A DNA stretch of 64,000 nt from Eubacterium sp. Its GTDB lineage: Bacteria; Bacillota; Clostridia; Peptostreptococcales; Anaerovoracaceae. Position 1 is the stretch's first letter; every line of letters starts with the position of its first letter. Below, in pieces: positions 911-41,666 of this stretch. The stretch is from positions 1,215-65,214 of the forward strand of contig JAETRU010000012.1 in assembly GCA_021769965.1 (NCBI GenBank), read 5' to 3'. Position numbers and translations under genes: made by a program. The notes under the pieces are model-generated. The model had not been told where the DNA came from and did no database searches. It was given only the letters and a program-made list of their open reading frames with translations.

Positions 911-970
911 TTTGGCAGGATGGAAAATGCGAATATGTACTGATAAGATTAAAAGGAGACGGGCAGTGAT

Positions 971-1297
971 ATTTCGTTACAATTCACAGTTAACATGGCG
1001 TACGCCACTTTTTTCGCTTTTTTGCATTCATACGGCGCCCTCGCTTTGATACGCGCCATATTTTCAGATGATTTTACAGCTACACGGCGCGCAAAGATGA
1101 AGATGTGCTGTTTTTTACTGTTTTTTGTCATCATGCGAAGCGTTCAAGCTGAAAGTATCTGTACAGCAAGGAGTGAAACGCCATATTGATGTGTTATTTA
1201 TCAAAAAAGTGGCGCGTATTCGGTAACAGGCGCCGTATGAAATGTTTTTTCTTCGAAATGTGGCGCGCAGGATGCCTGCTGTGAATCGTAACGATAT
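971..1297. repeat. non-coding palindromic element, copy A: four CGCCRY-N23/24-RYGGCG units, with 19-bp terminal inverted repeats
   Basis: Units 1003-1037, 1054-1089, 1179-1214, 1231-1265; terminal IR 971-989 / 1279-1297 (17/19 match); perfect 13-bp IR 1027-1039 / 1229-1241; colinear homolog at 41112-41380. Confidence 0.8.
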
Positions 1298-1331
1298 TTC
1301 ATCATTTCCCCGGTTTTGCTGTGCCTTTCCA

Positions 1332-2707: not shown

Positions 2708-3306
2708 ACCCGAAATTAAGAGGCCTTTCTGCTGTTATTTCGGACTTTGTACCGGGCTGTGAGCAGGAAGAAAGAGACCGGAAGATCATGCTGAAGTTCC
2801 TAAAGGACAACGATAATTGTCTGGAGCGGGCGAATTTAACGGCGCATTTTACAGCCTCCTCGTGGATCGTAAACGAGGCAGGCGATGGCATGGGTGACGA
2901 TAAAGTACTTATGGTCTATCACAACCTGTATAACTCCTGGTCGTGGACAGGCGGTCACGCTGACGGCGAAGCAGACCTTCTTTCCGTTGCGATCCGTGAA
3001 GCGCAGGAAGAAACCGGGGTACAGGATTTCAAAGTACTTCGGCGCGAGCCGGTTTCTCTCGAAATCATTACCGTGGACGGTCATATGAAGCGCGGCATTT
3101 ACGTGCCGTCACATCTGCATTTAAACCTGACGTATCTGCTGCAGGCTGACGAGACACAGAAGCTGTCTGTAAAGCCTGACGAAAACAGCGGAGTCGCATG
3201 GATTCCTGCCGGAGAACTTGCTGAACGTGTCAGTGAGCCGTGGATGATGAGATGGGTCTATGAGAAGCTGATGGCGAGAGTGAAGAAAGTTTTAACTGAG
3301 GATTGA
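2704..3306 (+). CDS. NUDIX hydrolase
   Basis: Nudix box GGHADGEADLLSVAIREAQEETG; ATGA overlap with miaB stop. Confidence 0.9.
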   Translation: MNPKLRGLSAVISDFVPGCEQEERDRKIMLKFLKDNDNCLERANLTAHFTASSWIVNEAGDGMGDDKVLMVYHNLYNSWSWTGGHADGEADLLSVAIREAQEETGVQDFKVLRREPVSLEIITVDGHMKRGIYVPSHLHLNLTYLLQADETQKLSVKPDENSGVAWIPAGELAERVSEPWMMRWVYEKLMARVKKVLTED

Positions 3307-3444
3307 CGAACTCATATATAAGTGTACATATAATCGAAAAAATTCCTGAATATATGCACGTGTAATCACAAGGTCGTGCATATTTTAGGAGTTTTTTTGT
3401 TATATATGCATTTTGACATGATAAAAAATGAAGGGAGAGTGAAG

Positions 3445-4290
3445 ATGGAAGAGAGAATTCTGACTGTTGATTTGATTGAGGCATTTTGTACCTACTTGTA
3501 TCAGGAGGAGAAAAGCGAAGCAACCATTGAAAAATACCGTCGCGATGTAAAAAAATTTGCGGATTATTTAAACGGTGAAGCCGCAGTAAAGGAAAGGCTG
3601 ATTGCATACAAACAGTATTTAATTACGGAGGGCTATGCACTCAGCAGCGTCAATTCTATGCTGGTTGCAGTTAACAGCTTTTTTTCGTACGCAGGTTGGG
3701 AAGATTTGAGAATCAAACTGGTAAAAGTCCAAAAACAGATTTTTTGTGCAGAAGAAAAGGAACTGACGAGGTCGGAGTACTTACGCCTGGTAGATTGTGC
3801 GCGCAGGAGTGGAAAGGAAAGACTGGCGATGATCTTGTGGACTATGGGAACTACAGGAATCCGTATCAGTGAACTGAAGTTCATTACAGTAGAGTCAGTA
3901 AAACAAGGGAAACTGCAGGTGTGCAGCAAGTCAAAGAATCGAACTGTGTTTCTGGTAAAAAGGTTACGAAAAAAACTGCTTGCATACATAAAAAAGAAGA
4001 AAATTATATCTGGAAATATTTTTCTAACTCGCAGCGGGAGACCAGTCAATCGGACTAATATTTGGAAAGAGATGAAAACACTTTGTAAAGCAGCTGAGGT
4101 TTCAGAGAAAAAGGTTTTTCCGCATAACCTCCGGCACCTCTTCGCAAGAGTGTTTTATCAAGTGGAAAAGGATATCGCAAAATTGGCAGATATTCTGGGA
4201 CATAGCAGTATCAATACGACTCGGATTTATATGGCTTCATCGGGCTGTGAGCATCTGCGCTGCATGGAGAAAATGAAGATGTTGATGTGA
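3445..4290 (+). CDS. tyrosine recombinase (Xer/phage-integrase family), 281 aa
   Basis: Catalytic motifs GIRISEL, FPHNLRHLFA, LGHSSINTTRIY; ATG 3445 with GGGAGAG upstream. Confidence 0.93.
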   Translation: MEERILTVDLIEAFCTYLYQEEKSEATIEKYRRDVKKFADYLNGEAAVKERLIAYKQYLITEGYALSSVNSMLVAVNSFFSYAGWEDLRIKLVKVQKQIFCAEEKELTRSEYLRLVDCARRSGKERLAMILWTMGTTGIRISELKFITVESVKQGKLQVCSKSKNRTVFLVKRLRKKLLAYIKKKKIISGNIFLTRSGRPVNRTNIWKEMKTLCKAAEVSEKKVFPHNLRHLFARVFYQVEKDIAKLADILGHSSINTTRIYMASSGCEHLRCMEKMKMLM

Positions 4291-4299
4291 TAGATCAGA

Positions 4300-4327
4300 A
4301 TGCAACATAATTATGATTATGTTACAA
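4300..4327 (+). repeat. dif-like recombination site, left (IRL)
   Basis: ATGCAACATAA-TTATGA-TTATGTTACAA (11-6-11); right arm resembles the XerD arm TTATGTTAAAT; core 4306-4324 is the exact reverse complement of 4544-4562. Confidence 0.85.
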
Positions 4328-4351
4328 ATGTGTATAGCAACACATAAAAAG

Positions 4352-4380
4352 ATTATACTTTGAAATAGTGCAAAAATCAA
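4352..4380 (-). promoter_or_regulatory. sigmaA-type promoter inside the invertible segment, pointing away from the downstream operon
   Basis: Minus strand TTGATT (4380-4375)-17 bp-TATAAT (4357-4352); small IR ATGTGT-N6-ACACAT at 4328-4345 just downstream. Confidence 0.75.
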
Positions 4381-4540
4381 CATTTTCTGATAATATTTGT
4401 GACATTGATAGTTTTTTCTAATTTTGTCCATGACAAATAAGCTGTTTCGACTATTGCGGCATTAAATAACGAAAGAGCTTGTTTTGTTGTATCTGTAATT
4501 CTGTTTTGCAGTAATGGTTTTAGCTGAAAAAGAGTGCTAA

Positions 4541-4568
4541 TTATAACATAATCATAATTATGCTGTAA
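4541..4568 (-). repeat. dif-like recombination site, right (IRR), inverted relative to IRL
   Basis: Minus strand TTACAGCATAA-TTATGA-TTATGTTATAA; same 6-bp spacer as IRL. Confidence 0.85.
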
Positions 4569-4589
4569 TTGTTTTTTGAGGAGGATGAA

Positions 4590-5774
4590 ATGGCAAAGAT
4601 TGCAGATGTAATCAAGTATGAAGGAGATAACAGCACCTTTATATGGAAACATCCCAGTGAGGATTTTAACAGTTTGACACAACTGATTGTCCACGAAAGC
4701 CAGGAGGCTGTTTTCTTTATGAATGGACAGGCACTGGATTTATTCGGACCGGGCAGATATACATTGGAAACCCAGAATATTCCTAAGATCGGAAAACTCT
4801 TGAATCGCTCGACAGGAGATACAACGCCTTTTCACTGCGAGGTTTACTTTATTAATAAAACTGAACAGATGGCAATTAAGTGGGGTACTGACAGCAAAGT
4901 ACAGTACATAGAACCGACCTATGGATTTCCAATTTCTATCGGTGCTTCGGGCGAAATGAGTCTGCGGGTAGAGGATAGCAGAAAGCTTTTAATCAAGGTA
5001 GTAGGTACGGAGAGCTCTCTTGGTCAGCAGAATCTTACGACTTTCTTCCGTGGGTTTCTGATGGCTCGTGTAAAGACATATATCGCGCAGGTGATGAAGT
5101 CCAATGCGATTAATATCTTTGAAATTGACGAAAATCTGACTGTCTTTTCGGAAAACGTTCGGAATCTTTTAATAAATGATTTTGCTGATTACGGCGTCAG
5201 CCTGGAACGCTTTTTTGTAACCAACATTGTAAAGCCTGACGGTGAGCGACAGTTCGAAAAGTTCAAAGAACTGTATTTTCGCCAGTATGCTGATATTGCG
5301 GAGGCAAAGCTCCGTCAGCAGGTTGGAATCATCGACCAGCAGACCGAGGCACAGAAGATGGTGATTGAATCTCAGGCAATTGCGCAGAAACGAATGCAGG
5401 AAGGCTATACCTATCAGCAGGAAAGAGGTTTTGATGTTGCGCAGGACGCAGCTAAAAATGAGGCAGTAGGACAGTTTACCAATATGGGTATTGGACTTGG
5501 TGTCATGGGCGGCGTTGGCAGCAGTGTGGGCACTATGGTTGGCGGCGCAGTAAGCGGCGCTTTTGACGGAATGCAGGGTGTCGCAGCTGTACAGTCTGTA
5601 GGAAATACAGACACTTTTTGTGAAAACTGTGGTGCAAAGCTTGCTGCTGGTGCAGCATTTTGCGAGGAGTGCGGTATTGCCGTGCCTGTGGATACTTCAA
5701 AGTGTGTCGGCTGCGGGTTTGTCTTTGAACGTCCGGGTAAGTTCTGTCCAAAATGCGGTATGAAGAGAGGGTAG
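4590..5774 (+). CDS. SPFH/band-7 ('virion core protein'-type) protein with C-terminal double zinc ribbon, 394 aa
   Basis: LIVHESQEAVFF..GQALDLFGPGRYTL N-terminus, coiled middle, Gly-rich linker, CENC/CEEC/CVGC/CPKC; GAGGAGG RBS. Confidence 0.85.
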   Translation: MAKIADVIKYEGDNSTFIWKHPSEDFNSLTQLIVHESQEAVFFMNGQALDLFGPGRYTLETQNIPKIGKLLNRSTGDTTPFHCEVYFINKTEQMAIKWGTDSKVQYIEPTYGFPISIGASGEMSLRVEDSRKLLIKVVGTESSLGQQNLTTFFRGFLMARVKTYIAQVMKSNAINIFEIDENLTVFSENVRNLLINDFADYGVSLERFFVTNIVKPDGERQFEKFKELYFRQYADIAEAKLRQQVGIIDQQTEAQKMVIESQAIAQKRMQEGYTYQQERGFDVAQDAAKNEAVGQFTNMGIGLGVMGGVGSSVGTMVGGAVSGAFDGMQGVAAVQSVGNTDTFCENCGAKLAAGAAFCEECGIAVPVDTSKCVGCGFVFERPGKFCPKCGMKRG

Positions 5775-5778
5775 AAGG

Positions 5779-6486
5779 ATGAGTAAAAGATTTAAAATGT
5801 ACGCCTCCGTATGGGCGATTATGTTTATTGTATTTCAGATTATCTGTTTCGTAACGCCGACTGAGGCCGCAGGAATGAATAAATTCGGCGGCGCGTTTTG
5901 GGCAGGATATGTGTTTATCGATCTGGCTTTTGTCGGACAGCTGGTCTGCGCTTATATTGCACTGAAAGCAGAAAATATGCGGAAGCTGTTTTATAACCTG
6001 TCTCTGATTAATATCAGCTATACGGGACTTGTGCTTATGTTGATATGCGGTGCTGGAGTGATGATCGTGCCAGATATTCCAAACTGGGTTGGAATCATTC
6101 TATGTCTTCTAATTTTGGCCTTTACTGCAACATCCGTGATTGCGGCCAAAGCGACTGTGGATATTGTCGACCGCATGGACGATAAGTTAAAGGTTCAGAC
6201 CTTTTATATGAAAAATCTGCAGACAGAGGCGGAAACCTTGATGTCGCAGGCAAAATCGCCAGAAAGTAAAGCTGTTTGTAAAAAAGTCTACGAAGAAATT
6301 CGCTACGCTGATCCGATGAGCCACGAAGCTCTGACCACCTTAGAAGCACAGATTACTATTAAATTTGCAGAATTAAAAGAAGCCGTTGCCAGTGAAGATG
6401 ATTCGGCTGAGACTGTACAGCAATTGGCAAAAGAGGTAATTGTGCTGGTGCAGGAGAGAGGAAAGAAAGTAAAGCTGGTGAAGTAG
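5779..6486 (+). CDS. membrane protein, about 4 TM helices plus soluble helical C-terminus
   Basis: Four hydrophobic stretches in the N-terminal half; 4 bp after SPFH stop. Confidence 0.85.
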   Translation: MSKRFKMYASVWAIMFIVFQIICFVTPTEAAGMNKFGGAFWAGYVFIDLAFVGQLVCAYIALKAENMRKLFYNLSLINISYTGLVLMLICGAGVMIVPDIPNWVGIILCLLILAFTATSVIAAKATVDIVDRMDDKLKVQTFYMKNLQTEAETLMSQAKSPESKAVCKKVYEEIRYADPMSHEALTTLEAQITIKFAELKEAVASEDDSAETVQQLAKEVIVLVQERGKKVKLVK

Positions 6487-6487
6487 G

Positions 6488-7696
6488 ATGGGGAAAAGAG
6501 TATCTTTTTTATTTGGTTCAGGTGCGGATACTGCTGCATGCAAGAAGTTGAAATCAGGTGACTCTTTTGCTGAAGCGTTGCTATTGGGGAAATATAGAAA
6601 AGAAAGAAAAGAATTATTAGGTGAGGACTTTGCAGAATATCAACTTATATATCCACAGAGTAGCAAGGTCTTTATTCAAAGTATTGTTGAAAATAAAGAA
6701 GAAGCGCAAAAAATTTTCCCTGAAAAATTTGATATTTGTTATAATTATGCAACCCAAAAAGAGGAAATAGATTATAGTGGTGTGATAAGACCAATGTGCA
6801 AAGACTTTTATGATATTATCCATAGTGAAGAACAAGAAGAGACGAAAGACATCAGGAACTTCTTTTTGAAAAAAGCCGTTTTCTTTGATTCGCTAGATGA
6901 AAAATTCAACTCATTAAGGGATATTGAATTTAATAAAAATGGAAAAAGAGTTATTAATGCGTATGTTACTATTTTTATTCTCATGTTCAAAAGCCTTTAT
7001 GATATACCTGAAGAGTTTCAATGGACATATGAAAACATATTCAACGTATTGAAGAAAGACTACGATATTTTGTCCGATATAACAAATGAGAATTATTATA
7101 GTATTGTAAAGAACAGTGGAATTTCGTGTAAAATTATCACAACAAACTATACTGAATTATCGGAGAAGCTAACAGAAAAACCAGTAACATACTTGCATGG
7201 AAAACTGAATTGGTTTGAGGATTTAAAGAATTTAACTGTTTATGATTGTACGAATAAAGAGGAACTGAATAAGATGAAACCTCTTATTAAATCTTGCTGT
7301 TTAATACCGTTTATATTAATACCTAGCGGAATCAAGCCAATCATATGCAAAAGACAAATCAAAGAATTTTATAAAATGATTGAGAAATTGGATAATAGCA
7401 ATATTCTATGTGTCGTTGGATACCGATTTAATAGTGAGGATAATCACATAAATTCAATTATTGCTGAGTGGATTAGAGAACCTAATCATCAGCTATTTTA
7501 TTTCAATTTTAATGAAGATGTAAGTTTTTCAAGATTAAGATGGGCGGACTTGTTTTCGATAAAAGATATAGAATATCGTGACAATTATGAGATAAATTTT
7601 ATAAAAATCGAAGAAAAAATTGTAAATATCATTGTAAATGAGAGCAATAGTATAAAGGCATTTTCTACATTTATGAATCAACTTGAAAGGAGTTAA
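6488..7696 (+). CDS. SIR2-like (SIR2_2-type) protein, putative NADase, 402 aa
   Basis: FLFGSGAD, IITTNYT, YLHGKL, ILIPS, VVGYRFNSEDNHIN motifs in sirtuin order; very AT-rich. Confidence 0.75.
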   Translation: MGKRVSFLFGSGADTAACKKLKSGDSFAEALLLGKYRKERKELLGEDFAEYQLIYPQSSKVFIQSIVENKEEAQKIFPEKFDICYNYATQKEEIDYSGVIRPMCKDFYDIIHSEEQEETKDIRNFFLKKAVFFDSLDEKFNSLRDIEFNKNGKRVINAYVTIFILMFKSLYDIPEEFQWTYENIFNVLKKDYDILSDITNENYYSIVKNSGISCKIITTNYTELSEKLTEKPVTYLHGKLNWFEDLKNLTVYDCTNKEELNKMKPLIKSCCLIPFILIPSGIKPIICKRQIKEFYKMIEKLDNSNILCVVGYRFNSEDNHINSIIAEWIREPNHQLFYFNFNEDVSFSRLRWADLFSIKDIEYRDNYEINFIKIEEKIVNIIVNESNSIKAFSTFMNQLERS

Positions 7697-7703
7697 TCTA
7701 ATA

Positions 7704-10208
7704 ATGTCAATATTCAAATGCAAAATGTGCGGCGGTACACTGGAAATCACAAATAATGAAACTGTAGCAGTCTGTGAGTACTGCGGCACTAAGCAGACTT
7801 TACCAAAACTTGATGATGAAAAACGCGCTAATCTTTACGACCGTGCAAACCATTTCAGACGTAGTAACGAGTATGATAAAGCGATGGGAATTTATGAACA
7901 GATTCTTAACGAGGACAGCACGGATGCAGAAGCGTACTGGTCGCTGGTGCTTTGCCGCTATGGTATTGAGTATGTAGAAGATCCAGCTACTCACAAGCGC
8001 GTGCCGACAGTGAACCGTGCACAATATGCTTCTATTTTCACTGATGAAGACTATAAAGCGGCATTACAACATGCTGACGGATATCAGAGGGTAGTTTACG
8101 AAGAAGAAGCGCAGGCAATCGACAATATCCAGAAAGGTATTCTTGCTATATCACAGCGTGAAGAACCTTTTGACGTGTTTATTTGCTACAAAGAAACGGA
8201 CAATCAAGGACGGAGAACGCCTGACTCTGTGCTTGCCAACGACCTGTATCATCAGCTGACACAGGAGGGCTTTCGCGTATTCTTTGCGAGAATTACCTTG
8301 GAGGATAAGCTGGGTTCTGCATATGAGCCGTACATATTTGCAGCATTGAACTCCGCAAAGGTTATGGTTGTGCTTGGAACAAAGCCAGAGCATTTTCAGG
8401 CTGTATGGGTAAAAAATGAGTGGAGCAGATATCTTTCATTAATTAAGAATGATGCTAAGAAAATGCTGATTCCAGCTTACAAGGATATGGATCCATATGA
8501 TTTACCGGAAGAATTTTCTCATCTGCAAGCACAGGATATGTCCAAGCTTGGCTTTATGCAGGATTTGATTCGTGGAATTAAGAAAATTACGGCGTTAGAA
8601 AAACCAAAGACTACAGCAAAGGAAACCGTAGTCGTAAGCAGTGCCGCCGGCAATGCAGAATCGCTATTAAAGCGTGCCTTTATGTTTCTTGAAGATGGTG
8701 ATTTTGCAAGTGCAAACGAATACTGTGAGAAAGTGCTGGATTTAGATCCAGAAAATCCAAGAGGCTATCTGGGCAAACTGATGGCAGAGCAGAATGTCAG
8801 AACAAAAGAAGCCTTGAAAGATTGTAAAGAATCCTTTGAGGAAGCGAATAACTATCAGAAGGTGGTTCGCTTTGGTGATGCTGCTTTAGTTGCTGAACTA
8901 CAAGGATATGTTAAATATATCAATGACAGAAATGAACTGGATAGAAAGATGTTTGCTTATGATACTGCAAAATCTTTAATGGAAAGGGCTAAAAGTGAAA
9001 ATGATTTCAAAGAAGCTGCAGAAAAATTCCAGATAGCAGCAGGTTATGAGGACGCAGATAATTTGGCTGATGAATGTCTGGAAAAGGCAGAAATTGCAAG
9101 GAAAGATGCGATCTATGATGCCGCACAGATGCAGATGAAAAGAAATACAATTTCTGATTATGAGAAAGCAATAGAAGGATTTCAGAGTATTGTAGACTGG
9201 AAAGACTCAGAAGAACAGAAAGTTGTTTGTCAACAGGCGTTATCCAAACTTCAGGCTGAACGAGAGGTGAGGAGTAAGACAACTAAAAAATGGATTAAAA
9301 TATTAGTTCCTCTGGCAATTATATGTGCTGTTTTAGGAATTGTCGTAAAAACGATAATTATACCAGAAAGTCAATATAAAAACGCAATAAGTTTAATGGA
9401 GCAAAACCAATACGAAAAAGCAATTAAAGAGTTTGAAAAGCTTAATGGATACAAAGATAGTAGAAATAAAATCAGTGAAGCAGAAGAATTGTTTTTAGAA
9501 AACAAATACCAATATGCGGTTGAATTATATCAGAATAAAGAATTTGAAAAGGCCAGGAAAGAATTTGAACTGTTAGGCGATTATAAGAACTCTAAAGTTT
9601 TAATTAAGAAGTATTTAATGGAAAGTGGAGTGGATTACTCTAAAATAGGTGATTCCTATTATTTTGGATCTTATGAACAAGATAATGATAGGAGTAATGG
9701 CAAAGAGAAAATAGAGTGGCTTATTATTGAAAGAAATGATAACAAGGCATTATTAATTAGCAAGTATGTATTGGACTATAGAAAATATAATAGTGACGCT
9801 GTTGTTGTAAAGAGCCTCAACGATTACGATGAAACAACAGGAACAATGAGCTGGGAACAGTGTGATTTAAGAAGTTGGCTTAATAATGAGTTCCTAAAAA
9901 ATGCATTTACTTTAAAAGAAAGAAATCAAATACGAGATGATATTTTTATCCTATCATCGAATGAAGTTGAAAAATATTTCCCTTCGAGCGAACTTAGGGT
10001 TTGTGAGCCAACGGTTTATGTAAAGAAAAAAGGTGTTAAGACAAATTCTTATGGGAAATGCGATTGGTGGCTAATAGCTAGTGAGAGTATAGAATCTTCA
10101 TATAGATTATCTACATCAATTGTGTCTGGTGTTGGAGAAATTTCTAAAGCGGGTGTTGATTCACAAATTGGTGTTCGCCCAGCCATCTGGCTTGACCTTG
10201 CTAAATAA
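7704..10208 (+). CDS. Zn-ribbon/TPR/TIR/TPR/TM/DUF6273-like multidomain membrane protein, 834 aa
   Basis: CKMC..CEYC; TPR helices; TIR FDVFICYK...VWVKNEW with the conserved Glu; one TM (ILVPLAIICAVLGIVV); C-terminal IEW...LLISKY...W..CDLRSWLN...WWL...GVRPAIWLDL. Confidence 0.85.
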   Translation: MSIFKCKMCGGTLEITNNETVAVCEYCGTKQTLPKLDDEKRANLYDRANHFRRSNEYDKAMGIYEQILNEDSTDAEAYWSLVLCRYGIEYVEDPATHKRVPTVNRAQYASIFTDEDYKAALQHADGYQRVVYEEEAQAIDNIQKGILAISQREEPFDVFICYKETDNQGRRTPDSVLANDLYHQLTQEGFRVFFARITLEDKLGSAYEPYIFAALNSAKVMVVLGTKPEHFQAVWVKNEWSRYLSLIKNDAKKMLIPAYKDMDPYDLPEEFSHLQAQDMSKLGFMQDLIRGIKKITALEKPKTTAKETVVVSSAAGNAESLLKRAFMFLEDGDFASANEYCEKVLDLDPENPRGYLGKLMAEQNVRTKEALKDCKESFEEANNYQKVVRFGDAALVAELQGYVKYINDRNELDRKMFAYDTAKSLMERAKSENDFKEAAEKFQIAAGYEDADNLADECLEKAEIARKDAIYDAAQMQMKRNTISDYEKAIEGFQSIVDWKDSEEQKVVCQQALSKLQAEREVRSKTTKKWIKILVPLAIICAVLGIVVKTIIIPESQYKNAISLMEQNQYEKAIKEFEKLNGYKDSRNKISEAEELFLENKYQYAVELYQNKEFEKARKEFELLGDYKNSKVLIKKYLMESGVDYSKIGDSYYFGSYEQDNDRSNGKEKIEWLIIERNDNKALLISKYVLDYRKYNSDAVVVKSLNDYDETTGTMSWEQCDLRSWLNNEFLKNAFTLKERNQIRDDIFILSSNEVEKYFPSSELRVCEPTVYVKKKGVKTNSYGKCDWWLIASESIESSYRLSTSIVSGVGEISKAGVDSQIGVRPAIWLDLAK

Positions 10209-16924: not shown

Positions 16925-17009
16925 GCGGCGTTTGGAAGGTATGCAAAAAAATCTTTCCATTTCGTGTTCACACCCGGTCATCGTTCGTAACCTGTGTAAA
17001 TTGGCTGTA

Positions 17010-17180
17010 TTTGGGCAGTTCTTCTGACTTAGACATCGGACGCCCTTATCTTGCCTTCCCGGTTTCCCAGTGACATTTATTAAGAAAGAGCTACGTCATT
17101 ACAGCGGCGTGACCGTGCAGGAGTTTCACCTGCTTCTCTTTTGACCCCCCCTCAAAAGGGACCCGTATACATTCAATTGT
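17010..17180 (-). ncRNA. cobalamin riboswitch 1 (cbiMNQO)
   Basis: Minus: AAAAGAGAAGCAGGTGAAACTCCTGCACGGTCACGCCGCTGTAA...CACTGGGAAACCGGGAAGG...AAGTCAGAAGAACTGCC. Confidence 0.92.
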
Positions 17181-17186
17181 AATTCA

Positions 17187-17324: not shown

Positions 17325-17497
17325 ACAACTGAATGATAAGTATTTCTTGTCTGTTTTTACAGCAAAGAGGGAAACAGGTGTAAATCCTGTGCGGTTGCCG
17401 CCGCTGTAAGGGAGAAGTCATGCCGGTATACCACTGGGCGTAAGGGTCTGGGAAGGTGCGCATGATGCAGATACCCGAGCCAGAAGACCTGCATGAA
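17325..17497 (+). ncRNA. cobalamin riboswitch 2 (repeat-protein gene and cbiK)
   Basis: AGAGGGAAACAGGTGTAAATCCTGTGCGGTTGCCGCCGCTGTAA...CACTGGG...GGGAAGG...GAGCCAGAAGACCTGC. Confidence 0.92.
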
Positions 17498-17556
17498 ATA
17501 CAGGAAGTTCCCTGACGGTTATCAGGCATCCTGAAAACAGATACAGAAAATACGGG

Positions 17557-19560: not shown

Positions 19561-19574
19561 TTTGTTAAGCAACT

Positions 19575-19748
19575 TGAAAATATTGGTTGATAAAATCGTA
19601 ATATGGAATCAGGTGAGAGTCCTGAACAGTCCTGCTGCCGTAATGACGGAGCTTTTTTGCAAGGCGTACAGCCAGTCACTGGGAATGTTTCCCGGGAAGG
19701 CGCATAGAGAGCATTGACGTCAGAGTCGGAAGACATCCCAATATTTGA
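19575..19748 (+). ncRNA. cobalamin riboswitch 3 (cbiD operon)
   Basis: P1 AATATTGG (19579-19586)/CCAATATT (19738-19745); GGAATCAGGTGAGAGTCCTGAACAGTCCTGCTGCCGTAA...CACTGGGAA...GGGAAGG...GAGTCGGAAGAC. Confidence 0.9.
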
Positions 19749-19868
19749 CCGTGAAAGTCACAGGATATGAGTTTTAGGGTAATAGATTTAGTTGATCTTT
19801 CGACGAACAGATTCCCGGTAAGCAGAAGATGCCCGCTCGAAGAAATCAACTTTATAGAGCAGATATCT

Positions 19869-40956: not shown

Positions 40957-41111
40957 ATCGCGTGCGTTGCAGTAAGCTGTGCGTAAAGCTCGATCAGGAA
41001 CTGAGCAGAGGTTTTAGAACGGCCTTTACTCAGTTTTTTAGTGCGCTAAATTTTTATGCAGGTGAGTTTTTCTGTGATATCTTTCAAATAGGTATTAGAT
41101 ACAATCTGTGC

Positions 41112-41380
41112 CGCCGCTTTTTTTGCTTTTTGGCGCTTATACGGCGTTGCCTGACTGTCGCGCGCCGCTTTTTCGCAGTATTTTACGGATATACGGCGCG
41201 AAAAGACAGATGTAAGCTTGCTTTTACTTTTTCTTTACAGCTGCATGGAGCATACAGACTGAAAATATCTGTACAGCAGAGTGCAGCGCGCCGTATAGCC
41301 GCATTATGGATCATAAATGTAGCGTGAATCAGATAACGGGCGCCGTATGAGGCATTTTTTTCGCAAAAAATGGCGCGCAG
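41112..41380. repeat. non-coding palindromic element, copy B
   Basis: Units 41112-41146, 41163-41198, 41289-41324, 41341-41375; motif blocks align to copy A at constant offset 40109-40110. Confidence 0.78.
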
Positions 41381-41666
41381 TCGGTACAATACAAGAATTC
41401 TCCGCAGAAAAGATGGATCATTCTGTACGGCAGCAGGTTTTACATGGCGGCTGTAGAGTAGAAAACAGCAATTGACTGTGAACAGTAATATGTATGTAAA
41501 GGCATACACAAACTTTCCAACTTTTCTGTGGCATATCGCGGAAGAGTATGATAAAATATTCCTGTTAGTGTATATTAAGAAGAGAAACGAAAGCGCGTTT
41601 CCGCGTTTCAAAGAAGAGATTTCCAGACTACGTCTGATATATTATAACCAGGAGGAATGAAGAAAC

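Follow-up and report, generated by a model that had tools for sequence, protein, structure and literature searches.

Two intergenic repeats with inverted ends and phased internal units in an Emergencia-like gut genome probably represent a new MITE family

The window, by which we mean the whole 64,000-nt stretch of DNA analysed here, belongs to a host that MiaB homologues place beside Emergencia (Anaerovoracaceae, Peptostreptococcales; 83-90% protein identity), and an identical locus is present in the MAG GCA_021769805.1. It contains two related palindromic stretches, copy A and copy B, both of which are intergenic and lie upstream of plus-strand genes, with miaB as the neighbour of copy A and murT as the neighbour of copy B. 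A promoter match, TTGACT-17-TAAAAT at 1332-1360, lies outside copy A, at a distance of 40 bp, and is presumably the promoter of miaB. An earlier reading of the letters alone (the sequence-only reading) had placed a plus-strand promoter downstream of both copies; this holds for copy A, whereas the sites found for copy B occur at chance level. A tyrosine recombinase gene, the only recombinase gene in the window, starts 2 kb downstream of copy A (3376-4290), and neither a transposase gene nor a RAYT-like gene was found in the window. The recombinase gene opens a stretch (3376-10208) that continues with a Band_7/zinc-ribbon protein, two domainless proteins and an 834-aa protein carrying TPR, TIR_2 and DUF6273 domains, and that may be a small defence islet; the genes that follow miaB-NUDIX differ in Emergencia relatives. 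Elsewhere in the window, three cobalamin riboswitches are located at 16997-17181 (-), 17330-17510 (+) and 19567-19756 (+), two of them in a back-to-back arrangement, one on each strand, before the cobalamin transport/biosynthesis genes. In the murT leader, a 34-bp stretch (41577-41610) that overlaps a terminator-like hairpin (41583-41602) is missing from contigs of two metagenome runs (X5 and X6) and represents a strain polymorphism.

Copy A extends from 976 to 1292, since assembly breakpoints set these borders and position 976 is precisely where the sequences of other copies part (Table 1). The extent proposed at first, 971-1297, had reached into the flanks on both sides, and the 19-bp terminal inverted repeat described with it resolves into a 14-bp terminal repeat and part of the octamer GATATTTC. 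This octamer abuts both ends of the element and matches at all eight positions, for which we estimate a chance of ~4^-8 per fixed position. As the octamer is nearly self-complementary, an alternative view is that it extends the inverted repeat outward with a weaker match (7/9). The flanking sequences yielded a putative target-site duplication, a feature that the sequence-only reading had suggested looking for, in copy A, the one MITE copy in which such a duplication can be checked. Between the termini, four units of the form CGCCRY-N23/24-RYGGCG are separated by gaps of 16, 89 and 16 bp, exactly as they had been laid out from the letters, and a repeat finder recovered the perfect 13-bp inverted repeat (1027-1039/1229-1241) reported there. 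The block CTGAAAGTATCTGTACAGCA in the centre is also present in copy B, and the motif GTTACTATTCACAG forms the end of other copies as well as that of an unrelated element on a viral contig (L132, see below). Copy A appears intact and is possibly still mobilisable.

Copy B is a member of a B-type sister subfamily. Aligned over 276 nt, the two copies are ~70% identical, and the alignment needs one gap of a single base (blastn E = 2e-35). Within the window, the 20-nt block CTGAAARTATCTGTACAGCA is confined to these two copies, and no match is expected by chance. CGCCRY starts are found at 41112, 41163, 41289 and 41341 around a 90-bp centre, and the 3' half of the third unit is degenerate (GTAGCG). 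The spacing therefore agrees with that of copy A to within 1 bp, as had been claimed, whereas the extent given alongside, 41112-41380, falls short of the 41102-41489 that we find. Selection on geometry rather than sequence, proposed for the pair on the strength of this spacing, is not needed because identity of 70%, gapless apart from the one base, corresponds to substitution-only divergence between two subfamilies. Relative to copy A, copy B carries ~95 extra bases (41381-41475), a stretch that is indel-variable among B-type copies. A profile built from both copies detected no third copy in the 64-kb window.

The ends of copy B and of its relatives outside the window help to define the family. 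Copy B has no left terminal repeat, and unrelated sequence occupies that position, so this copy is truncated or decayed at its left; in other copies, GTTACTATTCACAGT(CAATCTG) directly precedes the base aligned with 41102. The right ends of other copies read CTGTGAAT[A/G]GTAAC, followed by diverse flanks. Taken together, these ends point to family termini of the form 5'-GTTAC[T/A]ATTCACAG. No flanking duplication surrounds copy B, which is probably fixed in place with its left terminus lost. As a separate feature, B-type termini (window 41471-41489 and other copies) carry an outward-facing TTGACT 13 bp from the tip that could combine with a -10 element in the flank to give a hybrid promoter; within the window, no hybrid promoter at a B-type terminus passed the promoter scan.

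Table 1 Features of copies A and B in window coordinates
Feature	Position	Strand	Basis or remark
Left flanking direct repeat GATATTTC, 8 bp	968-975	.	identical to 1293-1300; putative target-site duplication of copy A
Copy A, apparently intact 317-bp MITE-like element, A subfamily	976-1292	+	depth, breakpoints, fold-back
Left terminal inverted repeat GTTACAATTCACAG	976-989	+	13/14 vs reverse complement of 1279-1292
Left arm, two tandem ~51-bp units	1003-1089	+	direct repeats spaced 51-52 bp
Unit 1, CGCCAC-N23-ACGGCG, 35 bp	1003-1037	+	left arm of copy A
Unit 2, CGCCAT-N24-ACGGCG, 36 bp	1054-1089	+	left arm of copy A
Centre of copy A, T-tract hairpin (~1096-1135) and block CTGAAAGTATCTGTACAGCA (1149-1168)	1090-1178	+	
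Right arm, left-arm units inverted, 1179-1214 (36 bp) and 1231-1265 (35 bp)	1179-1265	+	inverted repeats; direct repeat spaced 51 bp
Right terminal inverted repeat CTGTGAATCGTAAC	1279-1292	+	
Right flanking direct repeat GATATTTC, 8 bp	1293-1300	.	
Copy B, B subfamily, ~388 bp	41102-41489	+	depth excess; alignment to copy A
Four units of copy B, 41112-41146, 41163-41198, 41289-41324 and 41341-41375	41112-41375	+	
Right terminal inverted repeat of copy B CTGTGAACAGTAAT	41476-41489	+	2 mismatches vs family form CTGTGAATAGTAAC

We compared both copies with contigs from gut/faecal metagenomes, using eight DNA runs for copy A and four for copy B. Copy A is covered at a depth of 30-270x and its flanks at ~4-10x; for copy B, the corresponding values are 15-330x and 3-8x. 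Dozens of variant contigs, with many substitutions and small indels relative to the window, account for the excess depth. Metagenome contigs stop at the element borders, and the sequence outside 976, 1292/1293, 41102 and 41482 varies by copy (loose-end consensus agreement 0.56-0.62). Same-species short-read contigs that carry the flanking genes break inside both copies. The depth excess, the breaks at the borders and the unrelated flanks together identify an interspersed repeat of tens of copies, so that the twin pair described from the letters gives way to a family with many further copies. Copy number was derived from assembler word depth, and since the ratio of element to flank varies from ~3x to 25x between samples, the number of copies per genome is approximate and some of them may sit in other species. 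No joint that skips copy A was found in the eight DNA metagenomes, and the relatives examined are without synteny at both loci.

Some metagenome copies appear to be interrupted after unit 1 (contigs at 41146/41152; runs X1, X6, X13 and X17). The interrupting sequence starts with TGATATGCTTCCTTCTAGGTAGACAAGT, of which an exact 20-mer and the neighbouring bases match locus L159 (2440-4100). The matching sequence in L159 lies just upstream of HTH_Tnp_1 and rve ORFs and corresponds to the left end of an IS3-family element. The interrupted copies are best read as insertions of an IS3-type element into a copy of the MITE, judging from this shared end. Contigs that diverge after the left end and unit 1 had been considered as remnants of a larger parent element; this candidate was rejected because the 20-mer is shared with the IS3-family left end.

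Neither copy was found to have coding capacity or a described relative. No reading frame is open in both copies (317 and 388 bp), and for the longest open frame in copy B no protein homologue turned up. With Rfam 15, no family matched copy A or copy B at cutoffs as loose as E <= 10, the three cobalamin riboswitches being its only matches in the window; the comparison with described families that the sequence-only reading had proposed thus came back empty. Neither copy matched plasmids or phages by BLAST, and the family resembles no sequence in Rfam, PLSDB, INPHARED or IMG/VR. Pattern scans were similarly unproductive: (i) a scan of the genome collection with GAAARTATCTGTACAGC, a pattern too short for this purpose, gave 109 loci, all of them chance matches by an nhmmer check; (ii) a metagenome scan with GGCGCCGTATGA-N18-22-TGGCGCGC gave 20 matches, all of them chance, in unrelated and mostly coding DNA; and (iii) scans of viral contigs with the central block, the unit-4 pattern and the extended end motif gave no match. 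Nothing relevant emerged when the literature was searched for the terminal-repeat sequences and for MITEs of gut Clostridia.

Within ~200 kb around miaB and murT in eight Emergencia-related genomes, no copy of the element was detected, and over these parts of the relatives' genomes the family is lineage-restricted. In several of these relatives, the start of miaB lies <= ~25 bp from the preceding gene. As their gene order differs from that of the window, the comparison documents absence of the element and not a strict empty site.

The termini, unlike the interior, do recur elsewhere. When viral contigs were scanned for the terminus, five loci matched, and one of them, L132 (IMGVR_UViG_2524614690_000001, 2933-3687), contains a 739-bp element bounded by the identical 14-bp ends GTTACTATTCACAG and CTGTGAATAGTAAC in inverted orientation and flanked by its own perfect 8-bp duplication AAGCGGCC (8/8). 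Its interior is unrelated to that of the window element and holds a GNAT acetyltransferase gene only, behind a terminator-like hairpin and without a transposase. The right 90 bp of this element are 78% identical to a solo end on plasmid pCY186 of Butyrivibrio proteoclasticus B316 (L158 617-720, corresponding to NC_014390.1 104616-104719), which stops at the same GTAAC and precedes a caspase-family gene; we saw no transposase next to this solo end and no partner end within 30 kb. No other such terminus pair was detected in 1.27 Mb of fetched DNA, and no transposase-coding element with these ends was found in the window or the fetched loci. The ends and duplication of the L132 element show that Clostridia harbour a transposition system characterised by these tips and a duplication of 8 bp. 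By its terminal sequences, the same system appears to move both the gene-less elements of the window and a gene cassette.

We consider it probable that copies A and B belong to a family of non-autonomous DDE-type transposable elements, that is, MITEs, with tens of copies in this Emergencia-like genome and perhaps also in co-resident relatives. The element is short and non-coding, it ends in terminal inverted repeats, it is flanked by an 8-bp duplication, and its copies are dispersed. A DDE-type transposase encoded elsewhere would recognise the 14-bp termini, cut out or copy the element and insert it through staggered cuts 8 bp apart, the repair of which would leave the duplication seen around copy A. 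As the L132 element has the layout of a mobile insertion cassette and the same ends, the MITE and the cassette would share one type of trans-acting transposase. The two ~51-bp units per arm, each corresponding to about five helical turns, could represent subterminal sites for transposase binding or synapsis; that a protein binds the putative sites, most plausibly the mobilising transposase itself, is a reasonable idea. Since both ends must fit one protein, the left and right arms are expected to change together between subfamilies, which would account for seemingly compensatory differences between copies A and B without invoking RNA. Assignment to a known IS family was attempted and abandoned: the tips were matched to none, and an 8-bp duplication fits several families, among them IS6, IS66, IS256, ISL3 and IS1595. 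A more far-reaching reading, in which the four phased dyads are binding sites for the transposase of an undescribed IS group with GTTAC...GTAAC tips and an 8-bp duplication that also moves cassettes such as the GNAT element, is in our estimate doubtful, and so is a second possibility, suggested by contigs from putative RNA runs (see below), that the copies give rise to long hairpin transcripts acting on miaB and murT.

The same palindrome could instead mark multi-copy genes for a structured non-coding RNA, in which ~300 nt are transcribed and act as RNA in the shape of a long hairpin bearing four side stems. The ability of copy A to fold back on itself, already seen in the letters, is pronounced: the predicted fold of the plus strand is one long fold-back far more stable than that of shuffled sequences (z = -6.2). 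The central hairpin arms differ between copies A and B and yet stay complementary, with five pairs changed on both sides, and some mismatches between the left and right arms become G-U pairs on the plus strand. However, the minus strand of copy A folds equally well or better (z = -7.5), copy B folds weakly (z = -1.9), and the consensus fold of the two copies amounts to -53.9 kcal/mol on the plus strand versus -51.2 kcal/mol on the minus strand, with nine versus seven pairs kept through double changes in a comparison of two sequences only. Because both strands fold alike, the symmetry belongs to the DNA duplex and not to one transcript, and the folds contain no signal of strand. Four runs hold short contigs that cover the elements only (975-1270 and 41103-41482), with flanks at about zero depth, as expected if the elements were transcribed; these contigs are directionless and the runs are RNA by a guessed run type, and a copy excess of about 10-30-fold could let background signal assemble the element but not its flanks. 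No sigma-70-type promoter and no intrinsic terminator was found in or at either copy, Rfam is silent as described above, and terminal inverted repeats with an 8-bp duplication are features of transposons and not of RNA genes. We therefore regard RNA genes as an unlikely explanation of the family.

A fixed local array of protein-binding sites, in the form of an inverted-iteron origin, accessory sites of a tyrosine recombinase or an invertible promoter switch, would explain why four GC-rich dyads are phased ~51 bp apart around a T-rich centre, why both copies precede plus-strand genes in intergenic DNA and why a tyrosine recombinase gene lies near copy A. Tens of copies with unrelated flanks are nevertheless unfit for an origin or a one-locus site. 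Copy B, moreover, has neither a rep gene nor a recombinase gene beside it, its neighbourhood being that of murT, as that of copy A is miaB; neither strand-changing (inversion) joints nor excision joints were found across copy A in the eight DNA metagenomes, and relatives have the same genes without the element. A local array is accordingly very unlikely.

Movement of palindromic units as single-stranded hairpins by a RAYT, an IS200/IS605-like tyrosine transposase, instead of a DDE enzyme, would place the element among REP/REPIN-type repeats, in line with its GC-rich 35-bp dyads in inverted doublets and the capacity of the whole element to form a hairpin. The units, however, have stems of 4-6 bp and spacers of 23-24 nt and do not resemble tight REP hairpins, no RAYT-like gene accompanies them in the window, and both defined terminal inverted repeats and an 8-bp duplication are present; to our knowledge, IS200/IS605 and RAYT systems make neither. 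This alternative is highly improbable. That two copies only in 64 kb, 70% identical, reflect chance resemblance or an old decaying local duplication is hardly credible and already refuted by the blastn match between them and by many metagenome variants with breakpoints at the same ends. In sum, among the three options that the sequence-only reading had left open, the mobile element is upheld by its ends, its duplication, its dispersed copies and the L132 relative, the recombinase site or origin fails on copy number, and the structured RNA gained no positive support.

The family has several practical consequences. The repeat fragments short-read assemblies of a little-studied gut lineage, as MAG and Logan contigs end inside it, and it can be used as a strain marker. 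Its ends offer an entry point to an IS group with activity across gut Clostridia, as they define a transposition system that also carries a passenger gene on a phage-like contig in another Clostridia setting. MITEs beside promoters can alter the expression or mRNA stability of their neighbours, which here would concern miaB and the murT/gatD operon. The analysis is useful chiefly because it removes a candidate for a novel regulatory array or ncRNA, an outcome that will not surprise a specialist.

The family is a new one of a well-known kind of element. By general description, it can be compared with the Correia/NEMIS elements known from Neisseria and with RUP from Streptococcus pneumoniae. These elements are 100-400 bp long, non-coding and mostly intergenic, with terminal inverted repeats and a target duplication; their diverged copies, tens to hundreds in number, group into subfamilies and are able to form a long hairpin. 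Mobilisation occurs in trans, RUP being linked to IS630-Spn1. The window family shares with them the short, non-coding format, the inverted ends, the duplication, the subfamilies and the hairpin. It differs in its duplication of 8 bp, where Correia/NEMIS and RUP duplicate TA, and in the two tandem ~51-bp subterminal units of each arm; we know of no tandem subterminal units in Correia/NEMIS or RUP.

Mobile insertion cassettes (MICs) such as MIC231 of Bacillus cereus consist of IS ends around a passenger gene and have no transposase. The 739-bp L132 element, with a GNAT gene only between the 14-bp ends of the window family and an 8-bp duplication, resembles them, whereas the window copies carry no gene. 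MIC231 itself has ends of IS231 (IS4 family), different in sequence, and a duplication of 10-12 bp. With REP, BIME and REPIN sequences the window element has in common GC-rich dyads in inverted pairs and a dispersed, intergenic distribution; unlike them, it has terminal inverted repeats, an 8-bp duplication and long unpaired spacers, and no RAYT was seen. Phased repeated motifs inside the ends, inverted between left and right, are also a property of IS21, Tn7, Mu and Tn402-type elements, in which several subterminal repeats bind the transposase. Those elements have TG...CA-type tips and duplications of 4-8 bp (IS21) or 5 bp (Tn7, Mu and Tn402-type), and it is in its GTTAC...GTAAC tips and its 8-bp duplication that the window family departs from them.
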